From a virus: a stretch of 35,280 bases of DNA. Shown here piece after piece: positions 1 through 31,601 of the stretch. The stretch is from UHGV virus genome UHGV-0087155, one strand, 5' to 3'. The position numbers were made by a program, and so were the translations under genes. Within the stretch, counting starts at the first letter, position 1, and each line of letters opens with the position of its first letter. The notes beneath the pieces are model-generated. The model saw only the letters and a list, made by a program, of their open reading frames with translations. It was not told where the DNA came from and made no database searches.

Positions 1-49
1 AGCTACCTTGCGGCGTAGCTGATGGCGTAGCTTGTGAGGATTGCATTTT
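1..49. promoter_or_regulatory. partial early operator/promoter region upstream of ner, with AGCTAC/GTAGCT inverted and direct repeats
   Basis: AGCTAC at 1-6, GTAGCT at 15-20 and again at 27-32 (GGCGTAGCT direct repeat 12-20 and 24-32). Position immediately upstream of ner is where Ner/repressor operators lie in Mu/D108; assignment is inference. Confidence 0.3.
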
Positions 50-268
50 ATGGCGATAAAGAAAAGTAAATGTGAAGACAAAAGCAGATACGACATTGTT
101 GCTGATCTGCGCAAAAGAGGAAAAAGCCTAGCAGCTCTTGGTCGTGAGAACGGTCTCTCTATCTCTACGGTAAAAAATGCCTTGGATAAACCTTACCCTC
201 GGGGTGAAAGAATTATTGCCGATGCATTGGGAGTTGAGCCACGAGACCTCTGGCCTTCGAGGTATTGA
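50..268 (+). CDS. ner: Ner-family DNA-binding regulator (72 aa), D108-like rather than canonical Mu Ner
   Basis: ATG at 50 with GAGGA at 36-40 (the track ORF begins at TTG 41). Small basic HTH protein ending ...LWPSRY as in the Ner/Nlp family; sits directly upstream of transposase A. Confidence 0.85.
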
Positions 269-270
269 AA

Positions 271-2271
271 ATGCAACCACAATGTAATGATTGGTTTTCT
301 GCAAAGAAATTAGAAGGGCTGATAGGTCTTCCAAAATCCTCTAGCGCGATCTCTCGTAAAGCAAGGTTAGAACAGTGGGTGTTTCGACAGATACACGGGG
401 TAAGAGGAGTAGCCTATGAGTTTCATATCTCATCTTTACCAAAGGAAACGCAAGCTGCGTTATTGCTTAGACAAGGAGAGATTGAAACAAGCATGGGCCG
501 TTTTGAAATCGCCCGCCCCACGCTGGAAGCCCACGATTATGATCCCGAGGCGCTGTGGAGCAAATGGGATAACGCCAGCGATTCCCAGCGCAGACTTGCT
601 GAAAAATGGTTGCCTGCGGTTCAGGCCGCAGACGAAATGCTGAACCAGGGGATTTCAACAAAAACGGCTTTTGCGACCGTTGCAGGACATTACCAGGTCA
701 GCGCATCCACTTTGCGTGACAAGTATTACCAGGTACAGAAGTTTGCGAAGCCTGACTGGGCGGCTGCTCTTGTTGATGGACGTGGTGCATCCCGTCGCAA
801 TGTTCACAAAAGTGAATTTGACGAGGATGCCTGGCAGTTTCTGATTGCAGATTATCTGCGACCGGAAAAACCCGCCTTCCGCAAATGTTATGAGCGTCTG
901 GAACTGGCAGCCCGCGAGCATGGCTGGAGTATTCCCTCCCGTGCCACGGCCTTTCGCCGGATTCAGCAACTGGACGAGGCAATGGTTGTTGCCTGTCGTG
1001 AAGGTGAACATGCACTGATGCATCTGATACCGGCACAGCAGCGAACTGTGGAACACCTGGACGCCATGCAGTGGATCAACGGCGACGGTTATCTGCATAA
1101 CGTCTTTGTACGCTGGTTTAACGGTGATGTGATCCGCCCGAAAACATGGTTCTGGCAGGATGTGAAAACCCGAAAAATTCTGGGCTGGCGCTGCGATGTG
1201 AGCGAGAACATTGATTCAATTCGCCTCTCGTTCATGGATGTTGTGACTCGCTACGGTATCCCGGAGGATTTTCACATCACCATTGATAACACCCGTGGTG
1301 CTGCGAATAAATGGCTGACGGGAGGCGCGCCCAATCGCTACCGCTTTAAGGTGAAAGAAGACGATCCAAAGGGATTGTTTTTACTGATGGGTGCGAAAAT
1401 GCACTGGACAAGCGTTGTTGCCGGTAAAGGCTGGGGCCAGGCAAAACCTGTTGAACGTGCTTTCGGTGTTGGTGGGCTTGAGGAATACGTTGATAAGCAT
1501 CCGGCACTGGCTGGCGCATATACGGGGCCAAATCCGCAGGCAAAACCTGATAACTATGGCAACCGCGCTGTTGATGCAGAGCTGTTTCTGAAAACCCTTG
1601 CCGAAGGTGTGGCGATGTTCAATGCCAGAACAGGCCGTGAAACAGAAATGTGCGGGGGCAAACTCTCGTTTGATGATGTTTTCGAGCGTGAATACGCCAG
1701 AACGATTGTGCGTAAGCCAACCGAAGAACAAAAACGGATGCTGTTACTGCCTGCCGAGGCGGTGAACGTTTCACGCAAAGGCGAGTTTACGCTTAAAGTT
1801 GGCGGCTCCCTTAAAGGCGCGAAAAACGTTTATTACAACATGGCATTAATGAATGCCGGCGTGAAAAAAGTTGTGGTCAGGTTTGATCCGCAGCAGCTAC
1901 ACAGCACGGTTTATTGTTACACCCTGGACGGTCGGTTTATCTGTGAAGCGGAATGTCTGGCACCTGTTGCATTTAATGATGCAGCGGCAGGCCGTGAATA
2001 TCGCCGCCGCCAGAAACAACTGAAATCTGCAACTAAAGCAGCCGTTAAGGCTCAGAAACAAATGGATGCACTGGAAGTGGCAGAGCTGCTGCCGCAGATA
2101 GCCGAACCTGAAGCACCAGAATCACGAATTGTCGGCATTTTCCGGCCTTCCGGTAACACGGTGCAGGTGAAATACCAGGAAGCCGATGATGAATATGAAA
2201 CTGATCGTGATGAATATCTGAATCATTCACTGGATATTCTGGAACAGAACAGACGTAAAAAAGCTATTTAA
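271..2271 (+). CDS. A: DDE transposase MuA (666 aa) with divergent D108-type N-terminal enhancer-binding domain
   Basis: From [13 protein letters not shown] onward the protein matches Mu transposase A as I recall it, including the C-terminal ...[13 protein letters not shown]; the first ~60 aa differ. ATG at 271 (track ORF starts at TTG 265, overlapping the ner stop). Confidence 0.95.
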
Positions 2272-3739: not shown

Positions 3740-4011
3740 AAATGGCAAAAGTAATCTTTGAATTTAACAATACAGAAAATATTGAGTTTCAGGAAAATGG
3801 AGGTTTTGCCGTAAATATGAATGTGCGACTGGAAGAATCCTCACCTGAGGACCAGACCGGGCCACATGACGTAATGGCAGGCATCATCAAGAGCATGGCT
3901 CCTGAAATCATTAAAAAAGCGACCGAGGAGTTGTTGAAATCAGCCAGGGAACTTGGGCTGGAAGCTGAGGGGAAATTATTCAGCTATAACCCGAATACAG
4001 CCAGACATTAA
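3736..4011 (+). CDS. early hypothetical protein (91 aa), acidic
   Basis: ORF in the semi-essential early region; start overlaps the upstream stop; no recognisable motif. Confidence 0.55.
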   Translation: MKMAKVIFEFNNTENIEFQENGGFAVNMNVRLEESSPEDQTGPHDVMAGIIKSMAPEIIKKATEELLKSARELGLEAEGKLFSYNPNTARH

Positions 4012-4031
4012 TTCGCAAAGGAGCGCTGACA

Positions 4032-6454: not shown

Positions 6455-6623
6455 AACATCGTATTCGTGGCTGGGGAAATTTACCACGGTGAAACAGGAA
6501 TGCCCGACCTGCGGTAATGAATCCCCTGAATATCTGAAAGAGTGCCCTCATTGTGGCGGGCAGAAATGCAACCACTGCGATATGGGCGACGACACGGCGT
6601 GCATGAATTGTGAAGGTGAGTGA
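6441..6623 (+). CDS. small Cys-rich protein with four CxxC pairs (60 aa)
   Basis: GGAGGT RBS at 6429-6434; motifs CPTC, CPHC, CNHC, CMNC. Confidence 0.6.
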   Translation: MENNETSYSWLGKFTTVKQECPTCGNESPEYLKECPHCGGQKCNHCDMGDDTACMNCEGE

Positions 6624-6624
6624 T

Positions 6625-6936
6625 ATGAATAATGGTGTATTTTCAAAATCAGAAGAGCTTGCCGCCCTGCTGATTGCCGGTGGTTTGCCGAAAAAAGAAG
6701 TGCATGACTTTGTGAATTTTGTATATGAGCCGTCTCATGAAAAAGCTATTGATGAAGTCATGGCGTACCGGTTTGGCATTATTGCTGAGTCACTGAGTCC
6801 TCACTGGATTATTGAAAATCTCCGCACTATTGCTGATGGTAACGATAAAGTGGCGGCTGTCGCCGCCCTTGATGTGCTGCAACGTATGAACCGGGAACTA
6901 TTCAATCCCGAGTTTCTTTTTAAGAAACGAGGTTAA
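6625..6936 (+). CDS. early hypothetical protein (103 aa)
   Basis: ATG 6625 after GAAGGTGAG (track ORF starts at GTG 6610); stop TAA at 6934-6936. Confidence 0.55.
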   Translation: MNNGVFSKSEELAALLIAGGLPKKEVHDFVNFVYEPSHEKAIDEVMAYRFGIIAESLSPHWIIENLRTIADGNDKVAAVAALDVLQRMNRELFNPEFLFKKRG

Positions 6937-7314
6937 CCACTGTTTGCCGACGTCTGTTACGAGCGTCATCGGGGCGTCGGCAAGGTCCTGTTTTATGCGC
7001 TCAAGAATGGGTTTTTGATGTAGTGCTTTCGCAAAATCATGACCATCTTGTGTAAGTCTGACACTGGTGCCTGAATATGAATATCCGAGGCTTGTTGGGG
7101 TGAGACCAATGCTTTTTGCGGTGCCTGTTTCCAGATATCTGTTGCTGATAAAACCATTTTCAACCAGCAACAGAAGATGGAAAACCAGCTTCTGATGGCT
7201 GTCGCTGTGCCGCTGAGAACGATCCCAGCCGACATCTTCCAGTCGAATGAATGCGGTGTCGGCCTCCAGAAAAACATCAAATATTCTGGCTATCTCGTCA
7301 TAATCAATTTTCAT
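6898..7314 (-). CDS. hypothetical protein (138 aa) encoded antisense to the early operon
   Basis: ATG at minus 7314 with AAGGA 7 nt upstream; it is the only sizeable ORF in 6937-7344; its 3' end overlaps the converging plus gene by 39 bp. N-terminus (MKIDYDEIARIFDVFLEAD...) is reminiscent of small DUF2513-type phage proteins; this is from memory, not verified. Confidence 0.5.
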   Translation of the reverse strand: MKIDYDEIARIFDVFLEADTAFIRLEDVGWDRSQRHSDSHQKLVFHLLLLVENGFISNRYLETGTAKSIGLTPTSLGYSYSGTSVRLTQDGHDFAKALHQKPILERIKQDLADAPMTLVTDVGKQWLTSFLKKKLGIE

Positions 7315-7344
7315 ATCTCATTCCTTAATATGAGAGGTGAGCAA

Positions 7345-7896: not shown

Positions 7897-8282
7897 CGGA
7901 AGATTTATTTGGTGATTTGCAGGATGACACCATCCTGGCACATCTTGACAATCCCGCAGAGGATACGTCACGCTTTCCGGCACTGCTGGCGGAGCTGAAC
8001 GATTTACTACGCGGGGAATTGTCCCGGCTGGGTGTTGATCCTGCCCATTCACTGGAGATTGTTGTGGCTATCTGTAAGCATCTGGGCGGCGGTCAGGTCT
8101 ACATTCCGCGCGGTCAGGTTCTGGACTCGCTGATTCGGGATTTGCGTATCTGGAATGATTTTAACGGTCGCAACGTCAGCGAACTGACCACCCGTTATGG
8201 TGTCACTTTCAATACGGTTTACAAGGCCATTCGCCGGATGCGACGGCTGAAATACCGCCAGTACCAGCCTTCACTTCTGTAA
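7893..8282 (+). CDS. mor: Mor, middle operon regulator (129 aa)
   Basis: Matches Mu Mor in length and sequence; start overlaps the gemA stop; last gene before the early terminator. Confidence 0.9.
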   Translation: MTEDLFGDLQDDTILAHLDNPAEDTSRFPALLAELNDLLRGELSRLGVDPAHSLEIVVAICKHLGGGQVYIPRGQVLDSLIRDLRIWNDFNGRNVSELTTRYGVTFNTVYKAIRRMRRLKYRQYQPSLL

Positions 8283-8287
8283 ACAGT

Positions 8288-8312
8288 AAAGCCGGTTAAT
8301 CCGGCTTTTTTT
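8288..8312 (+). terminator. rho-independent terminator ending the early operon
   Basis: Stem AGCCGG (8290-8295), loop TTAAT, CCGGCT (8301-8306), followed by six T (8307-8312), just after the mor stop. Confidence 0.7.
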
Positions 8313-8359
8313 ACGTCCTCAATATCCTGTGATGAATAACCGTACCGGGGGAACTCATC

Positions 8360-8590
8360 ATGGGTAAAGGCTGGAATGCATCCTTTCATCTTGGCAGACG
8401 TGAGCGGCTGCGTCAGGAGGTTTTGCACCGTGTCGCCGGTGGGCCACGGCCTGCGCCCCGCGACTATACCGGTCATGATGGCACCCACGGCAGTTATTAC
8501 ATGAAAGGCTGGCAGTCAGTTGATATGCCGGAAATTCTTCATCATTGCCAACGTTATAAGGAAAAATATTGTGTACAGAAAATTCAGTGA
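8360..8590 (+). CDS. candidate small ORF (76 aa) in the mor-C interval
   Basis: ATG 8360 with GGGGGA upstream; the protein is Arg/His-rich and not obviously protein-like; may be non-coding leader instead. Confidence 0.3.
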   Translation: MGKGWNASFHLGRRERLRQEVLHRVAGGPRPAPRDYTGHDGTHGSYYMKGWQSVDMPEILHHCQRYKEKYCVQKIQ

Positions 8591-8702
8591 TGAATGTTTC
8601 GGGCCGTCCACGCTGATTAGTGCGATAAAAGTGATTGCCCTTGTGGTTCTGATAACCATCAGGGCCGTGGTGTATCTTTCTGTCTGTTAACAAGGGGAAA
8701 AT

Positions 8703-9125
8703 ATGCAGCATGATTTATTTGAACACGATCCGGCAATTCGCCAGTTAATCGGACATATTGATAACATCCCGGCCCCGGAACTGGAATCACGCTGGCCCCG
8801 TTCGGTGGTTGATCTGATTGATGTTCTGGAAAACGAACTGAAACGCCAGAACGTCAGCAATCCCCGTGAACTTGCCCGTAAACAGGCCGTTGCCCTGTCC
8901 TGTTTTCTGGGTGGACGGCAGTTTTACATCCCCTGCGGCGATACGATCCTGACCGCGTTACGCGACGATTTGCTTTACTGCCAGTTTAATGGTCGTAACA
9001 TGGAAGAACTGCGTCGCCAGTATCGCCTGTCCCAGCCGCAGATCTACCAGATTATTGCCCGCCAGAGAAAGCTGCATACACGACGTCATCAGCCTGATCT
9101 GTTCTCACCTGAAAGCCAGAAATAA
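8703..9125 (+). CDS. C: C, late-gene transcriptional activator (140 aa)
   Basis: Matches Mu C protein (MQHDLFEHDPAIRQLIGHIDNIPAPELESRW...) and is a paralog of Mor; RBS AAGGGGAAAAT before ATG 8703. The Mor-dependent middle promoter must lie in 8313-8702; not pinpointed. Confidence 0.95.
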   Translation: MQHDLFEHDPAIRQLIGHIDNIPAPELESRWPRSVVDLIDVLENELKRQNVSNPRELARKQAVALSCFLGGRQFYIPCGDTILTALRDDLLYCQFNGRNMEELRRQYRLSQPQIYQIIARQRKLHTRRHQPDLFSPESQK

Positions 9126-9147
9126 CCGGTATCCTGCCGGTTATTTC
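9124..9147 (+). terminator. hairpin after C (probable middle-transcript terminator)
   Basis: AACCGG (9124-9129), loop TATCCTG, CCGGTT (9137-9142), followed by ATTTCCTG; T-tract is weak. Confidence 0.45.
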
Positions 9148-9155
9148 CTGTCACC

Positions 9156-9189
9156 ATAATCCCGCACCTGCCATCTGATTTTTTAGACT
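9156..9189 (+). promoter_or_regulatory. candidate C-dependent late promoter Plys (C-rich element plus -10-like TAGACT)
   Basis: ATAATCCCGCACCTGCC at 9156-9172 and TAGACT at 9184-9189, upstream of lys; the C-rich element recurs upstream of I (16729-16758) and of the tape-measure gene (22784-22806). Confidence 0.5.
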
Positions 9190-9216
9190 GCCATCAGAGC
9201 ATTTTTTCAGGGAAGC

Positions 9217-9735
9217 ATGATGGCGGGGATACCAAAAAAACTGAAAGCCGCACTGCTGGCGGCAACGATTGCCGGTGGCAGTGTGGGTGGTTATCAGGAA
9301 ATGACCCGTCAGTCTCTGATCCATCTGGAAAATATCGCTTATATGCCTTACCGCGATATTGCCGGTGTGCTTACGGTCTGTGTGGGACATACCGGGCCGG
9401 ATATCGAAATGCGCCGTTACAGCCATGCGGAGTGTATGGCTCTTCTCGACAGTGATTTAAAACCGGTTTATGCGGCAATCGATCGTCTTGTCAGGGTGCC
9501 GCTGACGCCATATCAGAAAACGGCGCTGGCAACGTTTATTTTCAACACCGGTGTTACCGCATTCAGTAAATCAACGCTGCTGAAAAAACTCAATGCCGGT
9601 GATTACGCCGGAGCGCGTGACCAGATGGCCCGCTGGGTGTTTGCCGCAGGCCATAAATGGAAAGGACTGATGAACCGTCGCGAAGTGGAAATGGCTATCT
9701 GGAATATCAGGGGGGCGGATGACCTTCGCCAGTAA
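9217..9735 (+). CDS. lys: endolysin Lys with N-terminal signal-anchor-release (SAR) segment (172 aa)
   Basis: Matches Mu Lys; N-terminal Gly/Ala-rich weakly hydrophobic stretch KLKAALLAATIAGGSVGG is typical of SAR endolysins; RBS AGGGAAG. Confidence 0.9.
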   Translation: MMAGIPKKLKAALLAATIAGGSVGGYQEMTRQSLIHLENIAYMPYRDIAGVLTVCVGHTGPDIEMRRYSHAECMALLDSDLKPVYAAIDRLVRVPLTPYQKTALATFIFNTGVTAFSKSTLLKKLNAGDYAGARDQMARWVFAAGHKWKGLMNRREVEMAIWNIRGADDLRQ

Positions 9736-10105
9736 AAGTTTACTGCTGGCAGCCGTGTTTGCCGCCGTTCTGTCCGGGGTGTTGTGGCACAGGCTGGACA
9801 GCACCCGCCACGATAACCAGACGCTGCGCCGTGAATTACAGACGGAGCAACAGGCCCGCAACACGGCTGAATGGTTGTTACACGGTCAGGAACAGACGAT
9901 GCAGGTATTTTCCGCTATCCGTGCCGCAAATCGTGCCGCGCGGCTGGCAGACGAGACAGAACATCATGATGCAAAACAAAAAATTACAACCGCCATTACC
10001 GGTGACAATTGCAGCACTCGTCCTGTGCCTGCCGTTGCTGCTGACAGGTTGCGGGAACTCGAAAAACGCACCCGTGCCATCGGTGGTGATCCTGCCCGAA
10101 ACTGA
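9719..10105 (+). CDS. i-spanin-like inner-membrane lysis protein (128 aa)
   Basis: N-terminal TM helix LLLAAVFAAVLSGVLW followed by a charged coiled-coil-like periplasmic domain; start overlaps the lys 3' end. Confidence 0.7.
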   Translation: MTFASKSLLLAAVFAAVLSGVLWHRLDSTRHDNQTLRRELQTEQQARNTAEWLLHGQEQTMQVFSAIRAANRAARLADETEHHDAKQKITTAITGDNCSTRPVPAVAADRLRELEKRTRAIGGDPARN

Positions 10106-10307
10106 TGCAGAACTGACGGAAGCAACGCCCGTTCCGCCCACGCCACAGCCCCTGACGTGGGGAGCATCCCTTCTCTGGAATGCTGACCTGTTGATGGCGC
10201 TCGGGCAGTGCAACCGCGACAAGGCATCAGTCCGGGAACAGGAGACCCGAAGGAAAGAAATTTATGAACGAAGACCAGAACCGGGCGGTGGCGCTGCTGC
10301 TCGCTGA
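9966..10307 (+). CDS. o-spanin-like outer-membrane lipoprotein (113 aa), in overlapped architecture with the i-spanin
   Basis: Internal ATG 9966 in an alternate frame of the i-spanin gene; signal peptide plus lipobox LLTGC; Pro-rich mature region. Confidence 0.7.
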   Translation: MMQNKKLQPPLPVTIAALVLCLPLLLTGCGNSKNAPVPSVVILPETDAELTEATPVPPTPQPLTWGASLLWNADLLMALGQCNRDKASVREQETRRKEIYERRPEPGGGAAAR

Positions 10308-10458
10308 ACTCTGGCAGGGGGATACCCGTGATATTCCCCGCCCGGCGGCGTATGACCCGCCTGTATTGTGTGCCGGTTGCGGTCGTGAGCTGCGGCCTGA
10401 TGTGCTGAGACAGCAGCCGATGGCGAACTACTGCCACTGGTGCCGTGGAGCAGAATAA
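10264..10458 (+). CDS. small Cys-containing protein (64 aa)
   Basis: ATG 10264; motifs CAGC and CHWC suggest a zinc ribbon; overlaps the o-spanin 3' end. Confidence 0.55.
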   Translation: MNEDQNRAVALLLAELWQGDTRDIPRPAAYDPPVLCAGCGRELRPDVLRQQPMANYCHWCRGAE

Positions 10459-10757
10459 TGGATTTGATTTCAGTTTTAGCGTTATGGCCTTACCTGTTGC
10501 CTGTTGTGGCCGGTGGAGCCGTCTGGGCAATGCGTCGTAGTTTTGCCAGCACTGAGCGTGTGGAGCGTCTTGAAAACCGGATGACCGAAATGGAAACCCG
10601 CTACGCCAGCATCCCTGGCACAGAAGATGTACACGAAATGCGCCTGCGAATTGCAGAGCTGTCCGGCGATATCCGGGTGCTGTCCCAGCGGGTGCAGTCA
10701 TTTTCCCATCAACTGGAGCTGCTGCTTGAAAACGCAGTAAACCGGAGTAATTCATGA
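10458..10757 (+). CDS. membrane-anchored coiled-coil protein (99 aa), candidate lysis accessory (releasin-like)
   Basis: ATG 10458 overlaps the upstream stop (TAATG); N-terminal TM segment LISVLALWPYLLPVVAGGAVWAM then a charged helical region. Functional assignment is inference. Confidence 0.55.
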   Translation: MDLISVLALWPYLLPVVAGGAVWAMRRSFASTERVERLENRMTEMETRYASIPGTEDVHEMRLRIAELSGDIRVLSQRVQSFSHQLELLLENAVNRSNS

Positions 10758-11044
10758 TTAACGATATTCTGACCGAAGACCGTCGTCTGGTCATCCTGCG
10801 TTCCCTGATGGACTGCAATAACGAAGCAAACGAATCCATCCTTCAGGACTGTCTGGATGCATACGGACACAACGTTTCCCGCGATGTGGTTCGCGGCCAG
10901 ATTGACTGGCTGGCAGAGCAGCAACTGGTCACCGTGGAAAACCTGCGCGGCTTTTATGTCGTAACGCTGACCTCCCGAGGTCAGGATGTGGCGGAAGGTC
11001 GTGCCCGCGTTGCCGGTGTCAAGCGTCCTCGTCCCCGTGCATGA
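10754..11044 (+). CDS. hypothetical late protein (96 aa)
   Basis: ATG 10754 with GGAG upstream; translationally coupled (ATGA overlap) to neighbours; lies just upstream of the terminase genes. Confidence 0.6.
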   Translation: MINDILTEDRRLVILRSLMDCNNEANESILQDCLDAYGHNVSRDVVRGQIDWLAEQQLVTVENLRGFYVVTLTSRGQDVAEGRARVAGVKRPRPRA

Positions 11045-11631
11045 CAGGAGGCGTGATGGACAGGAAAACACGGGGCCGGGCTTCAAAAGTGGATTTACTG
11101 CCGGAAAACGTACGTAAAACGCTGCATGAAATGCTGCGTGATAAAGCGATCCCACAGGCCCGCATTCTGGAAGAAATTAACGTACTGATTGAAGACGCTG
11201 GCCTGCCGGATGAGATGAAACTCTCCCGTTCCGGTCTGAACCGTTACGCGACGAACGTCGAGCAGGTAGGCCATAACCTGCGACAGATGCGTGAAATGAC
11301 GTCAGCACTGACCGCAGAACTTGGTGACAAGCCAATGGGAGAAACCACAAAGCTGATTCTGGAAATGGCCCGCAGCCAGCTTTTTAAGGCCATGATGCGG
11401 CAAATCGAAAACCCGGAATCTGACGTGGATATTGACCTGCTGAAAAATGCCATGCTGGCGGCACAGCGTCTGGAATCCACGGCAATGTCCAGCCACCGGC
11501 GCGAGAAAGAAATCCGCCAGGCATTCGCAGAAGAAGCGGCAAACGCCGTCAGTGAAGAACTGCGCGGGCAGGATGGCATCAGCGAAGAGCTGGAGCAGCG
11601 TATCCGTGATGTGCTGCTGGGTAAGGCATGA
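11041..11631 (+). CDS. probable terminase small subunit / DNA-binding packaging protein (196 aa)
   Basis: Immediately upstream of the large terminase, as the Mu small terminase is; alternative start ATG 11056 after AGGAGG (11046-11051). Confidence 0.7.
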   Translation: MTGGVMDRKTRGRASKVDLLPENVRKTLHEMLRDKAIPQARILEEINVLIEDAGLPDEMKLSRSGLNRYATNVEQVGHNLRQMREMTSALTAELGDKPMGETTKLILEMARSQLFKAMMRQIENPESDVDIDLLKNAMLAAQRLESTAMSSHRREKEIRQAFAEEAANAVSEELRGQDGISEELEQRIRDVLLGKA

Positions 11632-11638
11632 GAGGGTT

Positions 11639-13294
11639 ATGAACACCAGAGAAAACAATCTTAAAGCCCTTCATGCCCCCCGAAAAATCGACCTGCGTGA
11701 GGAAGCCGAACTGCTGGGCGTGAATATCGTTACCGATATCGGGGAAGCACAGCCCCGCAATGAACCGGTTTTTCTGGGTTATCAGCGCCGCTGGTTTGAG
11801 GATGAAAGCCAGATTTGTATTGCTGAAAAATCCCGTCGTACCGGTCTGACATGGGCCGAAGCGGGCCGCAATGTCATGACGGCCGCAAAGCCGAGGCGTC
11901 GCGGTGGTCGCAACGTCTTTTATGTGGGGTCCCGTCAGGAAATGGCGCTGGAATACATTGCCGCCTGTGCCCTGTTTGCCCGCGCCTTTAACCAACTGGC
12001 AAAGGCTGACGTATGGGAGCAGACCTTCTGGGACAGCGACAAAAAAGAAGAAATCCTCACTTATATGATCCGTTTCCCTAACAGCGGATTTAAGGTGCAG
12101 GCGCTGTCAAGCCGTCCGTCTAACCTGCGTGGTTTGCAGGGGGACGTGGTGATTGATGAGGCGGCATTTCATGAAGCCCTGGACGAACTCCTGAAAGCGG
12201 CTTTTGCTCTCACCATGTGGGGTGCCCGCGTGCGGATCATATCGACACATAACGGCGTCGATAATCTGTTTAATCAGTACATTCAGGATGCGCGCGAGGG
12301 GCGCAAGGATTACAGCGTTCACCGCATCACGCTGGATGATGCCATCGCTGACGGGTTGTACCGACGTATCTGTTACGTCACGAATCAGCCGTGGTCGCCG
12401 GAAGCGGAAAAAGCCTGGCGTGATGGCCTGTACCGGAATGCGCCGAATAAAGAGAGTGCCGACGAGGAATACGGCTGCATTCCAAAAAAATCCGGGGGCG
12501 CTTATCTGTCACGCGTGCTGATTGAAGCCGCCATGACGCCAGTGCGGGATATCCCGATTCTGCGTTTTGAAGCCCCGGACGATTTTGAATCGCTGACACC
12601 ACAAATGCGCCACGGCATCGTTCAGGACTGGTGTGAACAGGAGCTGCTCCCGTTGCTCGATGCGCTGTCGCCGCTCAATAAACACGTACTGGGCGAAGAC
12701 TTTGCACGCCGTGGCGACCTGACGGTGTTTGTGCCGCTTGCCATCACTCCTGACTTACGCAAACGCGAATGTTTCCGCGTGGAGCTGCGTAATGTGACCT
12801 ATGACCAGCAGCGACAAATCCTTTTATTCATTCTGTCCCGTTTGCCCCGTTTTACCGGCGCTGCATTTGATGCCACCGGTAACGGCGGTTATCTGGCAGA
12901 AGCCGCCCGTCTGATTTATGGCCCGGAGATGATCGACTGCATCAGTCTGACCGCCGCCTGGTATCAGGAGTGGATGCCGAAACTGAAAGGCGAGTTTGAA
13001 GCGCAGAACATCACGATTGCCCGGCATCAGACCACACTCGATGACCTGCTTCATATCAAGGTGGACAAAGGTATTCCGCAGATTGATAAGGGGCGCACAA
13101 AAGATGAAAGCGGTAAAGGCCGACGACATGGTGACTTTGCCGTGGCGCTCTGTATGGCTGTCAGGGCGTCTTATATGAATGGTTTTGTTATCGACGAGGA
13201 CAGCATACAGGCGCTGCCACCACGCCACCGTGGTGATGATGTTGATAACGATGATTTTGATGATTATCACCAGTTTGAACGAGGGGGCTGGTAA
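11639..13294 (+). CDS. terminase large subunit (551 aa)
   Basis: ATG 11639 after GAGAGGG; the track ORF begins at 11447 but that extension overlaps the upstream gene without an RBS; size and position match the Mu large terminase. Confidence 0.9.
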   Translation: MNTRENNLKALHAPRKIDLREEAELLGVNIVTDIGEAQPRNEPVFLGYQRRWFEDESQICIAEKSRRTGLTWAEAGRNVMTAAKPRRRGGRNVFYVGSRQEMALEYIAACALFARAFNQLAKADVWEQTFWDSDKKEEILTYMIRFPNSGFKVQALSSRPSNLRGLQGDVVIDEAAFHEALDELLKAAFALTMWGARVRIISTHNGVDNLFNQYIQDAREGRKDYSVHRITLDDAIADGLYRRICYVTNQPWSPEAEKAWRDGLYRNAPNKESADEEYGCIPKKSGGAYLSRVLIEAAMTPVRDIPILRFEAPDDFESLTPQMRHGIVQDWCEQELLPLLDALSPLNKHVLGEDFARRGDLTVFVPLAITPDLRKRECFRVELRNVTYDQQRQILLFILSRLPRFTGAAFDATGNGGYLAEAARLIYGPEMIDCISLTAAWYQEWMPKLKGEFEAQNITIARHQTTLDDLLHIKVDKGIPQIDKGRTKDESGKGRRHGDFAVALCMAVRASYMNGFVIDEDSIQALPPRHRGDDVDNDDFDDYHQFERGGW

Positions 13295-14832
13295 TGGGCC
13301 GTATTCTGGATATTTCCGGGCAGCCGTTTGATTTTGACGATGAAATGCAGACCCGCAGCGATGAGCTGGCAATGGTCATGAAGCGCACGCAGGAGCATCC
13401 TTCCAGTGGTGTGACGCCGAACCGGGCCGCGCAGATGCTGCGTGATGCCGAACGCGGTGATCTGACAGCACAGGCTGACCTGGCCTTTGATATGGAAGAA
13501 AAGGACACCCACCTTTTTTCCGAACTGAGCAAGCGCCGCCTTGCCATTCAGGCGCTGGAATGGCGCATCGCTCCGGCACGTGATGCCAGCGCACAGGAGA
13601 AAAAAGACGCCGACATGCTGAATGAATATCTGCATGATGCGGCGTGGTTTGAAGATGCCCTGTTTGATGCCGGTGATGCCATTCTCAAGGGTTATTCCAT
13701 GCAGGAGATTGAATGGGGCTGGCTGGGCAAAATGCGCGTGCCGGTGGCGCTGCATCATCGCGATCCGGCGCTGTTCTGCGCGAACCCCGATAATCTGAAC
13801 GAATTACGTCTGCGTGATACGTCTTATCACGGGCTGGAGCTGCAACCGTTCGGCTGGTTTATGCACCGGGCCAAATCCCGCACCGGGTATGTTGGCACCA
13901 ATGGCCTTGTGCGCACGCTTATCTGGCCTTTTATTTTTAAAAACTATTCCGTGCGTGATTTTGCAGAGTTTCTGGAAATTTACGGACTCCCCATGCGCGT
14001 CGGTAAATATCCGACCGGCTCCACAAACCGTGAGAAAGCCACGCTGATGCAGGCCGTGATGGATATCGGGCGACGTGCCGGTGGCATTATTCCGATGGGG
14101 ATGACGCTGGATTTTCAGAGCGCCGCAGATGGTCAGTCAGACCCCTTTATGGCGATGATTGGCTGGGCAGAAAAAGCGATTTCAAAAGCCATTCTGGGCG
14201 GCACCCTGACCACAGAGGCCGGCGATAAAGGTGCACGGTCGCTGGGTGAAGTGCATGATGAGGTTCGCCGGGAAATCCGTAACGCGGATGTGGGCCAGCT
14301 TGCCCGCAGTATTAACCGTGACCTGATTTATCCCCTGCTGGCACTGAACAGTGACAGCACCATTGATATTAACCGCCTGCCGGGCATTGTATTTGATACC
14401 AGTGAAGCGGGTGATATTACGGCACTGTCTGACGCCATTCCGAAACTGGCGGCGGGAATGCGTATTCCGGTCTCCTGGATACAGGAAAAACTCCATATTC
14501 CGCAGCCGGTCGGTGATGAAGCCGTGTTTACTGCTCAACCGGTCGTCATGGATAACGGTCCGCAGAAAGAGGCCGCATTATCCGCTGAAGATATCCCGCA
14601 GGAGGATGATATCGACCGGATGGGCGTCTCACCGGAAGACTGGCAGCGTTCGGTTGATCCCCTGCTGAAACCCGTCATTTTTTCTGTGCTGAAAGATGGC
14701 CCGGAAGCCGCCATGAACAAAGCTGCTTCATTATATCCGCAGATGGATGATGCAGAACTTATCGACATGCTGACCCGTGCCATTTTTGTTGCCGATATAT
14801 GGGGGCGTCTGGATGCCGCAGCAGACCATTGA
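13294..14832 (+). CDS. H: portal protein (512 aa)
   Basis: Mu portal-like sequence and size; start overlaps the terminase stop (TAATG). Confidence 0.9.
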   Translation: MGRILDISGQPFDFDDEMQTRSDELAMVMKRTQEHPSSGVTPNRAAQMLRDAERGDLTAQADLAFDMEEKDTHLFSELSKRRLAIQALEWRIAPARDASAQEKKDADMLNEYLHDAAWFEDALFDAGDAILKGYSMQEIEWGWLGKMRVPVALHHRDPALFCANPDNLNELRLRDTSYHGLELQPFGWFMHRAKSRTGYVGTNGLVRTLIWPFIFKNYSVRDFAEFLEIYGLPMRVGKYPTGSTNREKATLMQAVMDIGRRAGGIIPMGMTLDFQSAADGQSDPFMAMIGWAEKAISKAILGGTLTTEAGDKGARSLGEVHDEVRREIRNADVGQLARSINRDLIYPLLALNSDSTIDINRLPGIVFDTSEAGDITALSDAIPKLAAGMRIPVSWIQEKLHIPQPVGDEAVFTAQPVVMDNGPQKEAALSAEDIPQEDDIDRMGVSPEDWQRSVDPLLKPVIFSVLKDGPEAAMNKAASLYPQMDDAELIDMLTRAIFVADIWGRLDAAADH

Positions 14833-16795: not shown

Positions 16796-17881
16796 ATGAA
16801 AAAACACGCGATTGGCATTGCCGCACTGAGTGCGCTGTCCATTGACGATGACGGCTGGTGCCAGCTATTGCCTGCCGGTCATTTCAGTGCCCGTGATGGT
16901 CGTCCGTTTGATGTGACAGGCGGTCAGGGGTGGTTCATCGACGGTGAGATTGCCGGGCGTCTGGTTGAAGGCGTTCGCGCGCTCAACCAGGACGTGCTGA
17001 TTGATTACGAGCATAACCAGCTACGTAAGGACAAAGGATTACCCCCGGAACAACTCGTCGCGGCTGGCTGGTTTAACGCCGATGAAATGCAGTGGCGTGA
17101 AGGTGAAGGATTATTTATCCACCCACGCTGGACGGCGGCGGCACAGCAGCGCATCGATGACGGCGAATTTGGTTATCTCTCTGCGGTTTTTCCGTATGAC
17201 ACCGCCACCGGTGCGGTGCTGCAAATCCGCCTTGCTGCGCTGACCAATGACCCCGGTGCCACCGGCATGAAAAAGCTGACCGCACTGGCGGCAGACCTTC
17301 CCGACATCCTTCAACAGGAGAACAAACCCATGAATGAAACGCTGCGCAAGCTGCTTGCGCGTCTTGGGGTGACGGTCCCCGAAAATGCAGACATCACCGA
17401 TGAACAGGCCAGCGCGGCCCTGAGTGCGTTTGATGCGCTCGAAACAGATGCCGGAAAAGTGGCGTCGTTATCCGCCGAACTGGAAAAGGCACAGAACGCC
17501 GCCGTTGACCTGACGAAATACGTCCCGGTGGAAAGCTACAACGCCGTGCTTGATGAACTGGCACAGGCCAAAGCACAAAGCGCCACTGCCAGCCTGAGCG
17601 CCGTTCTGGACAAGGCGGAGCAGGAAGGCCGCATTTTCAAAAGCGAACGTACCTATCTGGAACAGCTTGGCGGTCAGATTGGCGTGGCGGCACTGTCGGC
17701 ACAGCTTGAGAAAAAACAGCCCATCGCTGCGTTATCTGCCATGCAGACCACCACAGCGAAAATTCCGTCGCAGGAAAAACCGGCGGTGGCGGTGCTGTCT
17801 GCTGATGAACAGGCAGCAGTGAAGGCGCTCGGCATTACAGAGGCTGAGTATCTGAAAATGAAACAGGAACAAGAAAAATGA
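16796..17881 (+). CDS. I: head protease / scaffold protein I (361 aa), with the scaffold (Z) nested in the C-terminal part
   Basis: Mu gpI-like; C-terminal half is Ala/Gln/Glu-rich with repeated ALSA/LSAxL units typical of a scaffold domain. Confidence 0.85.
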   Translation: MKKHAIGIAALSALSIDDDGWCQLLPAGHFSARDGRPFDVTGGQGWFIDGEIAGRLVEGVRALNQDVLIDYEHNQLRKDKGLPPEQLVAAGWFNADEMQWREGEGLFIHPRWTAAAQQRIDDGEFGYLSAVFPYDTATGAVLQIRLAALTNDPGATGMKKLTALAADLPDILQQENKPMNETLRKLLARLGVTVPENADITDEQASAALSAFDALETDAGKVASLSAELEKAQNAAVDLTKYVPVESYNAVLDELAQAKAQSATASLSAVLDKAEQEGRIFKSERTYLEQLGGQIGVAALSAQLEKKQPIAALSAMQTTTAKIPSQEKPAVAVLSADEQAAVKALGITEAEYLKMKQEQEK

Positions 17882-18795
17882 TTGTCACCCCGGCATCCAT
17901 TAAAGCCCTGATGACCTCCTGGCGTAAGGATTTTCAGGGCGGTCTTGAAGACGCCCCGTCGCAGTACAGCAAAATTGCAATGGTGGTGAACTCTTCCACC
18001 CGCAGTAATACCTATGGCTGGCTGGGTAAATTCCCGACCCTGAAAGAATGGGTGGGTAAGCGAACCATTCAGCAAATGGAAGCGCATGGCTACTCCATCG
18101 CCAATAAAACGTTTGAAGGCACAGTGGGTATTTCCCGTGATGACTTCGAGGATGACAATCTGGGTATTTATGCGCCGATTTTTCAGGAGATGGGCCGTTC
18201 TGCGGCAGTTCAGCCGGATGAGCTGATTTTTAAACTTCTGAAAGATGGCTTTACCCAGCCCTGCTATGACGGTCAGAACTTCTTCGACAAGGAGCATCCG
18301 GTATATCCGAATGTGGACGGCACGGGCGACGCAACGAATACCTCCAACATCGTTGAACAGGACAGCTTCAGTGGTCTGCCATTCTATCTGCTGGACTGCT
18401 CCCGCGCAGTCAAACCGCTGATTTTCCAGGAGCGCCGCAAACCCGAACTGGTCGCACGTACCCGTATCGATGACGACCACGTTTTTATGGATAACGAGTT
18501 CCTGTTTGGTGCCAGCGCCCGCCGTGCTGCCGGTTACGGCTTCTGGCAGATGGCTGTCGCGGTAAAAGGCGATCTGACGCTGGATAACCTCTGGAAGGGC
18601 TGGCAACTGATGCGTGCGTTTGAAGGTGATGGCGGTAAGAAGCTGGGCCTGAAGCCGACACATATCGTTGTACCGGTCGGGCTGGAAAAAGCCGCAGAGC
18701 AACTGCTTAACCGTGAACTGTTCGCGGATGGCAATACCACCGTCTCCAACGAGATGAAGGGCAAGCTGCAACTGGTTGTCGCTGACTACCTGTAA
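17878..18795 (+). CDS. T: major capsid protein T (305 aa)
   Basis: Matches the Mu major head subunit in length and sequence; ATGA overlap with the I stop. Confidence 0.9.
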   Translation: MIVTPASIKALMTSWRKDFQGGLEDAPSQYSKIAMVVNSSTRSNTYGWLGKFPTLKEWVGKRTIQQMEAHGYSIANKTFEGTVGISRDDFEDDNLGIYAPIFQEMGRSAAVQPDELIFKLLKDGFTQPCYDGQNFFDKEHPVYPNVDGTGDATNTSNIVEQDSFSGLPFYLLDCSRAVKPLIFQERRKPELVARTRIDDDHVFMDNEFLFGASARRAAGYGFWQMAVAVKGDLTLDNLWKGWQLMRAFEGDGGKKLGLKPTHIVVPVGLEKAAEQLLNRELFADGNTTVSNEMKGKLQLVVADYL

Positions 18796-29665: not shown

Positions 29666-30198
29666 CACCCTGGCAGACGGCCTTTCTGCAATTACTGCCG
29701 TCAGGGCTTGCCTGGAATAAAAGCCCCGACAGCAAATTATCTGCGCTGGCGCAGGCCATCAGCGACGTGATTGCCACTGCGGCGGATGATGCGCGGCAAA
29801 TGCTGCGGGAGCGTTTCCCGTCCACATCCCGCTGGTATCTGGGGGAGTGGGAATCATTTCTGGGGTTGCCGGACTGTACCAGCGAAAACGGCACCCTGTC
29901 CGAACGCCAGCGGGCTGCCGCGAATAAAATGCGTATGACCGGCAATCTGAGTCGGCGCTTTTATGAATGGCTGGCTGCGCAGTACGGTTTTACCGTCAGG
30001 CTGACGGATTCCACAGAAGGCCAGTGGGTTACGCAGGTCAATATTTACGGTATTAAAAATTATCGCAACGCAACGGTGCTGGATAATGTTCTGACGCCGT
30101 TACGTGTTTATGAATCGGGTGCGCTGGAATGTTTACTGGAGAAATATAAACCCGCGCATCAGATTTATAAATTTGTTTACCATGACGGAGATAACTAA
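29656..30198 (+). CDS. tail / baseplate protein (180 aa)
   Basis: Precedes the tail fibre gene as in Mu (gp48-like). Confidence 0.8.
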   Translation: MAVTPWQTAFLQLLPSGLAWNKSPDSKLSALAQAISDVIATAADDARQMLRERFPSTSRWYLGEWESFLGLPDCTSENGTLSERQRAAANKMRMTGNLSRRFYEWLAAQYGFTVRLTDSTEGQWVTQVNIYGIKNYRNATVLDNVLTPLRVYESGALECLLEKYKPAHQIYKFVYHDGDN

Positions 30199-31601
30199 TG
30201 TTTTATATTGATAACGACAGCGGCGTAACCGTCATGCCGCCCGTATCCGCCCAGCGTAGTGCTATCGTTCGCTGGTTTTCAGAAGGTGACGGGAATAATG
30301 TTATCACATGGCCCGGCATGGACTGGTTTAATATTGTGCAGGCGGAGTTATTAAACACGCTGGAAGAAGCCGGTATTCAACCGGATAAAACAAAATTAAA
30401 CCAGCTTGCACTGTCCATTAAAGCCATTATGAGCAATAACGCGCTGCTGATAAAAAATAACCTCAGCGAAATTAAAACTGCCGGGGCATCAGCACAGCGT
30501 ACAGCACGTGAAAATCTGGATATCTATGATGCCAGCCTGAACAAAAAAGGACTCGTTCAGCTAACCAGTGCCACTGACAGCCCCAGTGAAACGCTGGCAG
30601 CCACCGCAAAAGCGGTGAAAATTGCGATGGATAATGCCAATGCCCGTCTGGCAAAAGACCGGAACGGAGCAGATATTCCCAATAAGCCGCTGTTTATCCA
30701 AAACCTCGGTTTACAGGAAACGGTAAACAGGGCTGGTAACGCCGTGCAAAAAAATGGCGATACCTTGTCCGGTGGGCTTACTTTTGAAAATGACTCAATC
30801 CTTGCCTGGATTCGAAATACTGACTGGGCGAAGATTGGATTTAAAAATGATGCCGATGGTGACACTGATTCATACATGTGGTTTGAAACAGGCGACAACG
30901 GCAATGAATATTTCAAATGGAGAAGCCGCCAGAGCACCACAACAAAAGACCTGATGACGCTGAAATGGGATGCACTAAATATTCTGGTAAATGCCGTCAT
31001 TAATGGCAGTCTTGGAGTTGGTACGACGAATGCGTTAGGTGGTAGCTCTATTGTTCTTGGTGATAATGACACCGGATTTAAACAGAATGGAGACGGCATT
31101 CTGGATGTTTATGCTAATAGTCAGCGTGTATTCCGCTTTCAGAATGGAGTGGCTATTGCTTTTAAAAATATTCAGGCCGGGGATGGTAAAAAATTCACGC
31201 TATCCAGCTCCAACAACTCCACGAAGAACGTAGGGTTTAATTTATGGGGCGCTTCATCAAGACCAACTGTTGCAGAGCTTGGTGATGATTCAGGCTGGCA
31301 TTTCTATAGTCAGCGAAATACAGATAATTCGGTGATATTTGCTGTAAACGGTCACATACAACCAGGTAACTGGAGTAACTTTGATTCCCGATACGTAAAA
31401 GATGTTCGTCTTGGTTCACAGCAATATTATGGAGTGAACAACTGGCAAACATGGAATTTCCAGTGCCCGTCAGGTCATGTATTGTCTGGTATTAATGTTC
31501 AGGATACAGGGTCCAACTCTGCCGATAATATAGCGGGCGTTTATTACAGACCCGTTCAAAAGTATATAAATGGCACCTGGTATAATGTAGCGAGCGTTTA
31601 A
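30198..31601 (+). CDS. S: tail fibre protein S (467 aa): constant N-terminal part fused to the variable part encoded inside the G segment
   Basis: gixL lies inside this gene at 30694-30719; the residues right after the junction (QETVN) are shared with the start of the oppositely oriented S' ORF. Confidence 0.85.
30694..30719. repeat. gixL, left Gin recombination site
   Basis: TTATCCAAAACCTCGGTTTACAGGAA; its near-perfect inverted copy (two mismatches) is at 33640-33665. Confidence 0.8.

Follow-up and report, generated by a model that had tools for sequence, protein, structure and literature searches.

A Mu-type lysis cassette with a SAR endolysin, overlapping spanin genes and a DUF2730 protein, but no recognisable holin, in a Muvirus genome

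How is a membrane-tethered endolysin set free when no holin can be recognised among the lysis genes? The question was raised by a cassette in the window, that is, the whole 35,280-nt stretch of the virus genome UHGV-0087155 analysed here. An earlier note, made from the letters alone, had described in it an endolysin of the signal-anchor-release (SAR) type, Lys, with nested spanin genes and no recognisable holin, and had proposed that a 99-aa protein with a single transmembrane (TM) segment may control endolysin release.

Relation of the cassette to phage Mu

The window is a Muvirus genome. Its DNA is 98.5% identical to that of phage Mu over positions 9000–11100, and the two are colinear without gaps from 8572 to 30973, the late region included; segments without a Mu counterpart lie at 1–432, 3776–4016, 6635–7344 and 30974–31538. 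Both prophage ends lie outside the window. All ORFs described in the earlier note were found in place, with matches far beyond chance. The lysis genes pair one-to-one with Mu genes 22, 23, 23.1, 24 and 25 in the same order, with the same overlaps and promoter (Table 1), and the Mu entry (GenBank AF083977) labels the matching genes SAR endolysin, i-spanin, o-spanin and releasin. Pfam matches in the cassette (PF00959, PF23793 and PF10805) were each above cut-off. Differences from Mu include two substitutions in the SAR segment of gp22 (V15A and G21S), the absence of gene 19 and the start codon of gene 20, and these leave the cassette architecture unaffected. We consider it very probable that the cassette represents a Mu relative's holin-less lysis system, expected to work as in Mu; no sequence feature contradicting Mu-type lysis was found.

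Table 1. Features of the lysis region and its surroundings (positions in the window)
Feature	Position	Strand	Evidence
Homologue of gp20 (39 aa) with a single TM segment, starting with GTG	8571..8690	+	36/39 residues identical to Mu gp20; phrog_19823, E = 1.1e-28; KD 2.59
Gene 19 absence junction	8571..8574	+	blastn: 7345–8574 matches Mu 8233–9462; 8572 onward matches Mu 9832 onward
Gene C, late transcription activator, turns on Plys	8703..9125	+	Pfam Mor family, E = 9.3e-34; 138/140 residues identical to Mu C
Plys, late promoter dependent on C, for the lysis operon (putative)	9143..9209	+	Homology to the mapped Mu promoter
gp22 (Lys), SAR endolysin, GH24-type lysozyme domain	9220..9735	+	PF00959, E = 1e-37; 169/171 residues identical to Mu gp22
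gp23, i-spanin, TM segment at the N-terminus, then a helical periplasmic domain with Cys98	9719..10105	+	phrog_214 (Rz-like spanin), E = 1.2e-34; 124/128 residues identical to Mu gp23
gp23.1, o-spanin lipoprotein, lipobox LLTGC (Cys29)	9966..10307	+	PF23793 (LysC/Rz1-like), E = 2.2e-15; phrog_3001, E = 4.2e-29; 107/113 residues identical to Mu gp23.1
gp24, 64 aa, CxxC-X17-CxxC	10264..10458	+	100% identical to Mu gp24; phrog_3260 (function unknown)
gp25, releasin, 99 aa, single TM segment, N-out/C-in, RR junction, cytoplasmic helical hairpin	10458..10757	+	100% identical to Mu gp25; PF10805

A terminator hairpin (9123–9146) follows gene C and precedes Plys. A scan for sigma-70 promoters and terminators over 8200–11200 gave 3 promoter-like sites where 2.2 were expected; a consensus –35 element is missing from C-dependent promoters. 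Because the scan was thus uninformative, Plys was placed by homology to the late promoter annotated at Mu 10403–10469; window positions 9123–9222 differ from Mu 10383–10482 at 3 of 100 positions.

In addition to its Pfam lysozyme match, gp22 matched a PHROG endolysin family (E = 5.7e-52), and its catalytic triad is intact (E37-X8-D46-X5-T52). At its N-terminus (LKAALLAATIAGGSVGG), residues 8–24 have a mean Kyte-Doolittle (KD) hydropathy of 1.30 over 17 residues and consist to 65% of Gly, Ala, Ser and Thr; K6, K7 and K9 precede this segment. In contrast, the true TM segments of gp23, gp23.1, gp25 and gp20 have KD values of 1.95–2.59. The low hydrophobicity, the basic residues in front of it and the near-identity to Mu gp22 bear out the description of Lys as a SAR endolysin. 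The cassette had been taken to begin at 9217, where an ATG does exist, but the lys start annotated in Mu equates to 9220, where the second of two consecutive ATGs lies (ATGATG), and the K6/K7 numbering follows from this start. Mu gp22 is membrane-tethered, as shown by chloroform release and gp25-dependent lysis (PMC9239132). Because 169 of 171 residues are shared with that protein, gp22 here would likewise be held at the membrane in an inactive form and become active once released. V15A and G21S both fall in the Gly-rich stretch of the SAR segment, which Chamblee et al. suggested might influence spontaneous release (PMC9239132), so dependence on gp25 could differ quantitatively in this phage. 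Here and below, topology was called from hydropathy together with the positive-inside rule and the identity to Mu.

The i-spanin assignment of gp23 likewise stands. It is a type II protein with an N-terminal TM segment (residues 7–23, KD 2.28) followed by a helical periplasmic domain. As described earlier, gp23.1 has the features of an o-spanin, with a lipobox Cys, a small Pro-rich mature protein (10 Pro in 85 residues) and a gene that shares DNA with the i-spanin gene in a different frame, but the term nested does not apply: gene 23.1, read in the +1 frame, starts within gene 23, overlaps it by 140 nt and ends 202 nt beyond the gene 23 stop codon. The pair resembles lambda Rz/Rz1 in combining an inner-membrane subunit (N-terminal TM segment, helical periplasmic domain) with a lipoprotein of the outer membrane whose gene is read in the +1 frame, whereas the lambda Rz1 gene is fully embedded in Rz. 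In Mu, spherical cells result from amber alleles of genes 23 and 23.1, and lambda RzRz1 complements the 23.1 amber mutation (PMC9239132).

Membrane proteins of the window and the search for a holin

When the hydropathy of all 391 ORFs in the whole 35.3 kb that are 30 aa or longer was scanned, no ORF on the + strand showed more than one hydrophobic segment, and the only two-segment ORFs in the window were antisense shadows inside structural genes. Hydrophobic + strand ORFs other than gp20, gp23, gp23.1 and gp25 were rejected as holin candidates, being out-of-frame or antisense shadows in gene 8 or in the terminase, portal, N, S and U'/S' genes, or else the sheath and wedge proteins. The segments without a Mu counterpart contained no + strand TM-like ORF that could be a holin; hydrophobic matches there were shadows only, at 31039–31233 (+, out of frame in S) and 30557–31099 (–, antisense). 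No cassette protein matched a holin family in Pfam or PHROGs, and the late region carries no insertion relative to Mu. With no multi-TM + strand ORF in the window and a late region colinear with that of Mu, the reading of the cassette as holin-less was upheld. Neither of the two findings that the earlier note had named as speaking against it, a holin elsewhere in the late region or a Lys without a membrane tether, was encountered; no such holin turned up, and the N-terminus of gp22 is of the SAR type. The 99-aa protein is not, as had been stated, the only other membrane protein, since gp20 also has a single TM segment. It is encoded by a middle-operon gene upstream of gene C, outside the lysis system.

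Mu positions 9463–9831 have no counterpart in the window, and the position of the gene 19 start codon is fused to gene 20. The same contiguous junction without gene 19 recurs in SfMu and PhiR68_1, in five vB_YpM phages of Yersinia and in at least 12 prophages of E. coli. The lysis regions of the SfMu, PhiR68_1 and Yersinia vB_YpM Muviruses are 98.4–99.6% identical to that of the window, with no functional differences evident, and in their GenBank entries most lysis genes are still "hypothetical". The gene 19 product is a 4-TM protein once proposed to be the Mu holin, and the gene is missing from several plaque-forming Muviruses. Mu gp19 showed no significant similarity to the multi-TM protein encoded at the corresponding place in Klebsiella phage Kp4866-3. 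Because gene 19 is naturally absent here and in plaque-forming Muviruses, the comparison agrees independently with the published conclusion that it is not a lysis gene.

Could a small pore-former nevertheless act as a cryptic holin or pinholin, with gp20 or gp25 depolarising the membrane and thereby freeing the SAR endolysin? Pinholins are the usual partners of SAR endolysins (PMC9239132); strong TM segments (KD 2.59 and 1.95) occur in the small membrane proteins gp20 and gp25, gp25 lies within the late lysis transcript, and gp19 and gp20 were once proposed to be a holin-antiholin pair. However, Mu gp19, gp20 and gp25, alone or together, were not lethal upon depolarisation with DNP, and DNP delayed Mu lysis rather than triggering it (PMC9239132). 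Growth was also unaffected by expression of Mu gp25 (PMC9239132), and gene 19 is missing from this genome and from the viable SfMu, PhiR68_1 and vB_YpM phages. A pore-forming role for gp20 or gp25 is therefore extremely unlikely. The holin-less cassette shares with the SAR endolysin and pinholin systems of phage 21 (S68/R21) and P1 (Lyz) the Sec export, the weakly hydrophobic SAR segment tethering a lysozyme and the spanins encoded downstream. In those systems release follows depolarisation by the pinholin, whereas here it would be brought about by gp25, which does not form pores.

Endolysin release by gp25

gp25 matched DUF2730 (PF10805) over its whole length (E = 2.5e-13; 50.4 bits against a cut-off of 24.9). 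Its TM segment (residues 3–19) is followed by R26 and R27, from which an N-out/C-in orientation was assigned by the positive-inside rule only, and the 73 cytoplasmic residues include 12 Asp/Glu, 9 Ser and 2 His. A single-sequence AlphaFold2 model has helices at residues 3–8, 10–49 and 56–97 (pLDDT 79). The PF10805 match, the TM topology and the anionic cytoplasmic domain are those of a DUF2730 type I protein, and the gene order 22, 23, 23.1, 24, 25 together with K6 and K7 of gp22 fits a type I releasin.

The protein identical to gp25 has been studied in Mu, which has no holin and needs gp25 for the release of gp22 (Chamblee et al., 2022, mBio 13:e00813-22; PMC9239132). Deletion of Mu gene 25 abolished timely lysis, and a 25::cam mutant did not lyse for about 3 h; neither gp22 nor gp25 alone caused lysis, whereas the two together did (PMC9239132). 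gp25 was no longer needed when gp22 carried K6A or K7A, so these two lysines confer the dependence (PMC9239132). By analogy, gp25 in this phage would probably be required for endolysin release and lack holin-like lethality, and the present copy of the system as a whole, its proteins being identical or nearly identical to those whose functions were established in Mu, would behave in the same way. The proposal that the 99-aa protein controls endolysin release is therefore supported, and it had already been published for Mu.

Lysis in this phage is then expected to proceed as follows. The late activator C would turn on Plys, giving one tightly overlapping transcript that runs from gp22 through gp23/23.1, gp24 and gp25 on into the packaging genes. 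gp22 would be exported by Sec and held, inactive, at the inner membrane by its weakly hydrophobic, Gly/Ala-rich SAR segment, with cytoplasmic K6 and K7 locking it there and preventing spontaneous escape. gp25, N-out/C-in with its acidic helical cytoplasmic domain, would defeat this lock and allow the SAR segment to leave the bilayer, after which gp22 would refold and degrade peptidoglycan and the gp23/gp23.1 spanin complex would disrupt the outer membrane. As to how the releasin acts, we prefer a model in which its acidic cytoplasmic domain non-covalently neutralises or chaperones the basic N-terminus of gp22 to one of proteolysis, since unrelated SAR endolysins are helped by gp25 as well. Among later papers listed for "releasin" or "DUF2730", none took up this mechanism in its title or in the opening of its abstract, and for that question the window is no more tractable than Mu itself. 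The cassette adds nothing new to lysis biology, the holin-less releasin pathway having been published for Mu in 2022 with the same proteins. It does illustrate that a non-obvious mechanism can be recovered from raw sequence, as the earlier reader's inference confirms.

gp24 and a possible second role of the DUF2730 module

We also considered whether the main role of the DUF2730 protein lies outside lysis, in a module upstream of the terminase genes (zinc finger, DUF2730, gp26 winged-helix protein, small terminase subunit) that might, for example, couple packaging or late expression to the membrane, with endolysin release secondary or specific to Mu. Distant Mu-like phages keep the order zinc finger, DUF2730, gp26-like, gp27-like regardless of which type of endolysin they have: the module accompanies a GH24 SAR endolysin in one lineage (L005) and a soluble GH108 enzyme in Klebsiella Kp4866-3 (L006), and occurs also in HS6. 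The zinc finger was kept in 30 of 31 loci of the L005 lineage, and DUF2730 proteins are also paired with non-SAR endolysins (PMC9239132). A locus scan with a single protein as query returned one lineage only. However, the conserved order may merely reflect a conserved operon, and no packaging phenotype is known. The Mu-type protein, identical to the one here, is moreover directly tied to lysis by the 25::cam phenotype, and gp22 and gp25 alone, expressed from plasmids, suffice for lysis (PMC9239132). A principal function other than lysis is thus very unlikely, and release of gp22 remains the expected role of gp25.

gp24 looks like a divergent TraR/DksA-like zinc finger. The only pointers in this direction were the CxxC-X17-CxxC spacing, the syntenic position and an hhalign comparison with the TraR/DksA fingers at that position (probability 54%, E = 1.3e-4). 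Pfam gave no PF01258 match even at E <= 10, NCBIfam NF033459 scored 15.3 bits against a cut-off of 105, and BLASTP with the HS6 zinc-finger protein returned no alignment; gp24 was accordingly not filed as a TraR/DksA member. The gp24 stop codon and the start codon of gp25 share 1 nt. This overlap with the releasin gene, the invariance of the 64-aa zinc ribbon and the counterparts beside distant DUF2730 genes suggested that gp24 might be a functional partner or timer of the releasin, which would make it a candidate for the lysis clock still missing in holin-less Mu-like phages, or might link DUF2730 proteins to a second, non-lysis role. We regard either function as unlikely; as noted above, gp22 and gp25 sufficed for lysis in the Mu work (PMC9239132). 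In distant Mu-like phages, TraR/DksA-type zinc fingers are encoded directly upstream of the DUF2730 genes.

Identity of the lysis cassette

Window 9000–11100 matched 15 GenBank phage records by megablast, all of them Muviruses, including PhiR68_1 (99.6% identity), Yersinia vB_YpM phages (99.1–99.5%), D108 (98.7%), Mu itself (AF083977, 98.5%) and SfMu (98.4%). The first 25 kb gave the same Muvirus match pattern, and close relatives occur in ~40 complete E. coli genomes. When the whole window was compared with Mu by blastn, positions 8572–30973 aligned with Mu 9832–32233 as a single gap-free block (98.1%) spanning gene 20 to the tail-fibre gene, and only four segments were without Mu counterpart (see table). 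The window extends on Mu from ~1050 to 36652 and is therefore a segment from the interior of a Mu-like phage or prophage. Plys, the C-dependent late promoter mapped in Mu, is conserved together with the terminator that follows gene C (3 mismatches/100 nt).

Features of the window and of related loci (window positions unless a locus is named)
Feature	Position	Strand	Remarks
Gene 19-less junction	8571–8574		
gp20	8571–8690	+	39 aa, single TM
gp22 (Lys)	9220–9735		169/171 identical to Mu
V15A codon	9262–9264		
G21S codon	9280–9282		
gp23 (i-spanin)	9719–10105	+	124/128 identical to Mu (4 substitutions)
gp23.1 (o-spanin)	9966–10307	+	107/113 identical to Mu (6 substitutions)
gp24	10264–10458		64 aa; 100% identical to Mu, no differences
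gp24 stop/gp25 start (TAATG)	10456–10460		one-base overlap
gp25 (releasin)	10458–10757	+	99 aa; 100% identical to Mu, no differences
gp26			100% identical to Mu, no differences
Two-segment ORF	12824–13372	minus	antisense to structural genes
Two-segment ORF	17674–18771	minus	antisense to structural genes
No Mu counterpart	1–432		
No Mu counterpart	3776–4016		gene 7 (E6) region
No Mu counterpart	6635–7344		
No Mu counterpart	30974–31538		C-terminal part of S
Ner-like gene	41–268		
Transposase gene A	from 265		
108-aa ORF	6610–6936	+	phrog_1988
138-aa ORF	6898–7314	minus	phrog_585; no Pfam match
Tail-fibre gene S	30198–31601		467 aa (504 aa in Mu)
Zinc-finger gene, locus L004	2278–2499		
Zinc-finger gene, L005	2203–2496		
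Zinc-finger gene, L006	2209–2439		
Gene group, L006	420–2722		

All ORFs named in the earlier note, which had proposed a SAR endolysin, spanins and a 99-aa membrane protein, exist in the window. Lys belongs to Phage_lysozyme (PF00959, E = 1e-37) and to a PHROG lysis family (E = 5.7e-52), and has E37-X8-D46-X5-T52 as its catalytic triad, along with basic residues at K6, K7 and K9. The ORF stands as called, except for its start: the Mu-annotated start is the second ATG (9220), from which K6 and K7 are counted. The N-terminal segment LKAALLAATIAGGSVGG is 65% Gly/Ala/Ser/Thr, and its mean Kyte-Doolittle value is 1.30 versus 1.95–2.59 for the TM segments of gp23, gp23.1 (signal), gp25 and gp20; its description as weakly hydrophobic is therefore quantitatively right. 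Both differences from Mu gp22, V15A and G21S, lie in this segment, G21S within the Gly-rich stretch named by Chamblee et al. 2022 (PMC9239132), who call this stretch unusual and possibly relevant to the absence of spontaneous release.

gp23 and gp23.1 fall in PHROG lysis families (E = 1.2e-34 and 4.2e-29), and gp23.1 is Rz1-like (PF23793, E = 2.2e-15), with lipobox LLTGC, Cys29 as the lipidated residue and 10 Pro among the 85 residues of the mature protein. The proposed spanin pair thus holds, in an overlapped rather than nested arrangement: gene 23.1 starts inside gene 23 in the +1 frame, runs 202 nt past its stop and ends 44 nt into gene 24. The 99-aa gp25 is a DUF2730 protein (PF10805, 50.4 bits; gathering score 24.9). 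Its single-sequence AlphaFold2 model (pLDDT 79) is all-helical, with a TM helix that continues into a long helix (10–49), which a short loop connects to another long one (56–97); this fits the single-TM coiled-coil protein proposed. Not borne out was its standing as the only other membrane protein, as gp20 is also present upstream of gene C.

We conclude that this locus is the phage Mu lysis cassette and, judged by every sequence feature examined, belongs to the Mu gp22/gp23/gp23.1/gp25 system. In the updated GenBank record AF083977, the Mu genes already carry the labels SAR endolysin, i-spanin, o-spanin and releasin. The cassette had been interpreted correctly, the same system being established in Mu. 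The lysis finding is thus already known, and only the gene 19 polymorphism and the synteny of gp24 are left as new.

Holin search and absence of gene 19

Previously, in Chamblee et al. 2022 (PMC9239132), Mu gp22 was identified as a SAR endolysin, and amber mutations in 23 and 23.1 gave a spherical-cell spanin phenotype complemented by lambda RzRz1. A 25::cam lysogen failed to lyse for ~3 h, yet chloroform freed active gp22; lysis from plasmids required gp22 and gp25 jointly, neither sufficing alone. K6A or K7A made gp22 independent of gp25, whereas K-to-R substitutions did not, and gp25 also aided the release of unrelated SAR endolysins. Neither gp19, gp20 and gp25 singly nor their combinations were lethal after DNP triggering, and DNP delayed rather than advanced Mu lysis, so that Mu was concluded to have no holin. 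The candidate mechanisms offered there were proteolysis of the gp22 N-terminus, an unknown partner, and a transient channel or charge-neutralising chaperone; according to those authors, the lack of specificity of gp25 argues against proteolysis. No later work on the releasin mechanism was found, judging by titles and abstract openings. We infer that gp25 most likely acts as a non-covalent chaperone or by charge neutralisation. For Mu proteins identical to those here or differing by two residues, experiments have established tethering and release, the gp25 requirement and the lack of holin triggering; by analogy, these properties would extend to the window.

A six-frame scan of all 391 ORFs of 30 aa or more for hydrophobic 19-mers found no + strand ORF with two or more hydrophobic segments; the only two-segment ORFs were two on the minus strand. 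The + strand ORFs with one segment comprised the known membrane proteins gp20, gp23, gp23.1 and gp25, and sheath and baseplate-wedge proteins. The remaining one-segment ORFs were rejected as holins, being out-of-frame or antisense shadows in gene 8 and the terminase, portal, N, S and U'/S' genes. By blastn, the late region contains no insertion relative to Mu, and the window-specific segments offered no + strand membrane-protein candidate, their hydrophobic-segment ORFs being shadows only. The cassette had been read as lacking a holin; with neither a multi-segment + strand ORF nor a late insertion, no canonical holin was therefore found elsewhere in the late region.

The product of Mu gene 19, a 4-TM protein, was proposed as the Mu holin by Samanta et al. 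(as cited in PMC9239132). This gene is cleanly absent from the window, in which nothing corresponds to Mu AF083977 9463–9831; gene 20, here with a GTG start, is joined directly to the site of the gene 19 start codon. As a result, gp18 reads through to 76 aa with a slightly different C-terminus. The same contiguous junction is found in SfMu, PhiR68_1 and five Yersinia vB_YpM phages, while gene 19 is still present in Mu, D108 and Mu_3F6; of the E. coli genomes listed, 30 in all, at least 12 lack it and 18 carry it. Phages isolated as infectious particles (SfMu, PhiR68_1, vB_YpM) thus manage without gene 19, in agreement with the published genetic evidence that it is dispensable for lysis.

gp24 and the gene order around DUF2730

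gp24 carries a CxxC-X17-CxxC motif; its name does not occur in Chamblee et al. 2022 (PMC9239132), nor is gene 24 treated in the sections consulted. In distant phages bearing DUF2730 proteins with 30–34% identity to gp25 (tblastn), a TraR/DksA-type zinc finger is encoded directly upstream of the DUF2730 gene, in the place that gp24 holds in the window: in Pseudoalteromonas HS6 (annotated as 'DksA-like zinc-finger protein'; PF01258, E = 2.7e-6), in a Mu-like prophage inside a Stx2c phage (L005) and in Klebsiella phage Kp4866-3 (L006). It is kept in 30/31 viral contigs of the L005 lineage; Pasteurella AFS-2018a has none at this position. gp24 itself reached no family threshold and gave nothing against the HS6 protein by BLASTP; profile comparison by hhalign aligned its four Cys in register with TraR/DksA fingers (probability 54%, E = 1.3e-4). 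It is thus at best a divergent TraR/DksA relative.

The order zinc finger, DUF2730, gp26-like and gp27 (small terminase subunit) stays the same across endolysin types, a SAR lysozyme in Mu and L005 and a soluble GH108 enzyme in L006. This is compatible with simple operon conservation; a partner or further role for DUF2730 proteins is a low-probability lead. Besides the soluble GH108 endolysin, the zinc finger and the DUF2730 protein, the L006 group encodes a homologue of gp18 and a multi-TM protein in which no similarity to Mu gp19 was detected. A 201-aa protein of L006 gave a sub-threshold GTA_holin_3TM match (E = 0.0048). In L006, DUF2730 is therefore found alongside a likely holin and an endolysin that is not of the SAR type.

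Segments without Mu counterpart

No DNA-level match to Mu was found for the Ner-like gene, the first ~170 nt of transposase gene A or the gene 7 region. PhiR68_1 covers 95% of the first 25 kb in three pieces starting at window position 1. Together, these results suggest a different immunity or early-region allele in segments 1–432 and 3776–4016. The third segment lies between early-region genes and gemA, and its 138-aa gene, which runs against the otherwise uniform direction of the genome, resembles an accessory (moron) gene. In two related E. coli prophages, the features that RefSeq lists anywhere under the 5.1-kb match include a 'DUF2513 domain-containing protein'. The variation in tail-fibre gene S probably means that the G segment here specifies another host range.
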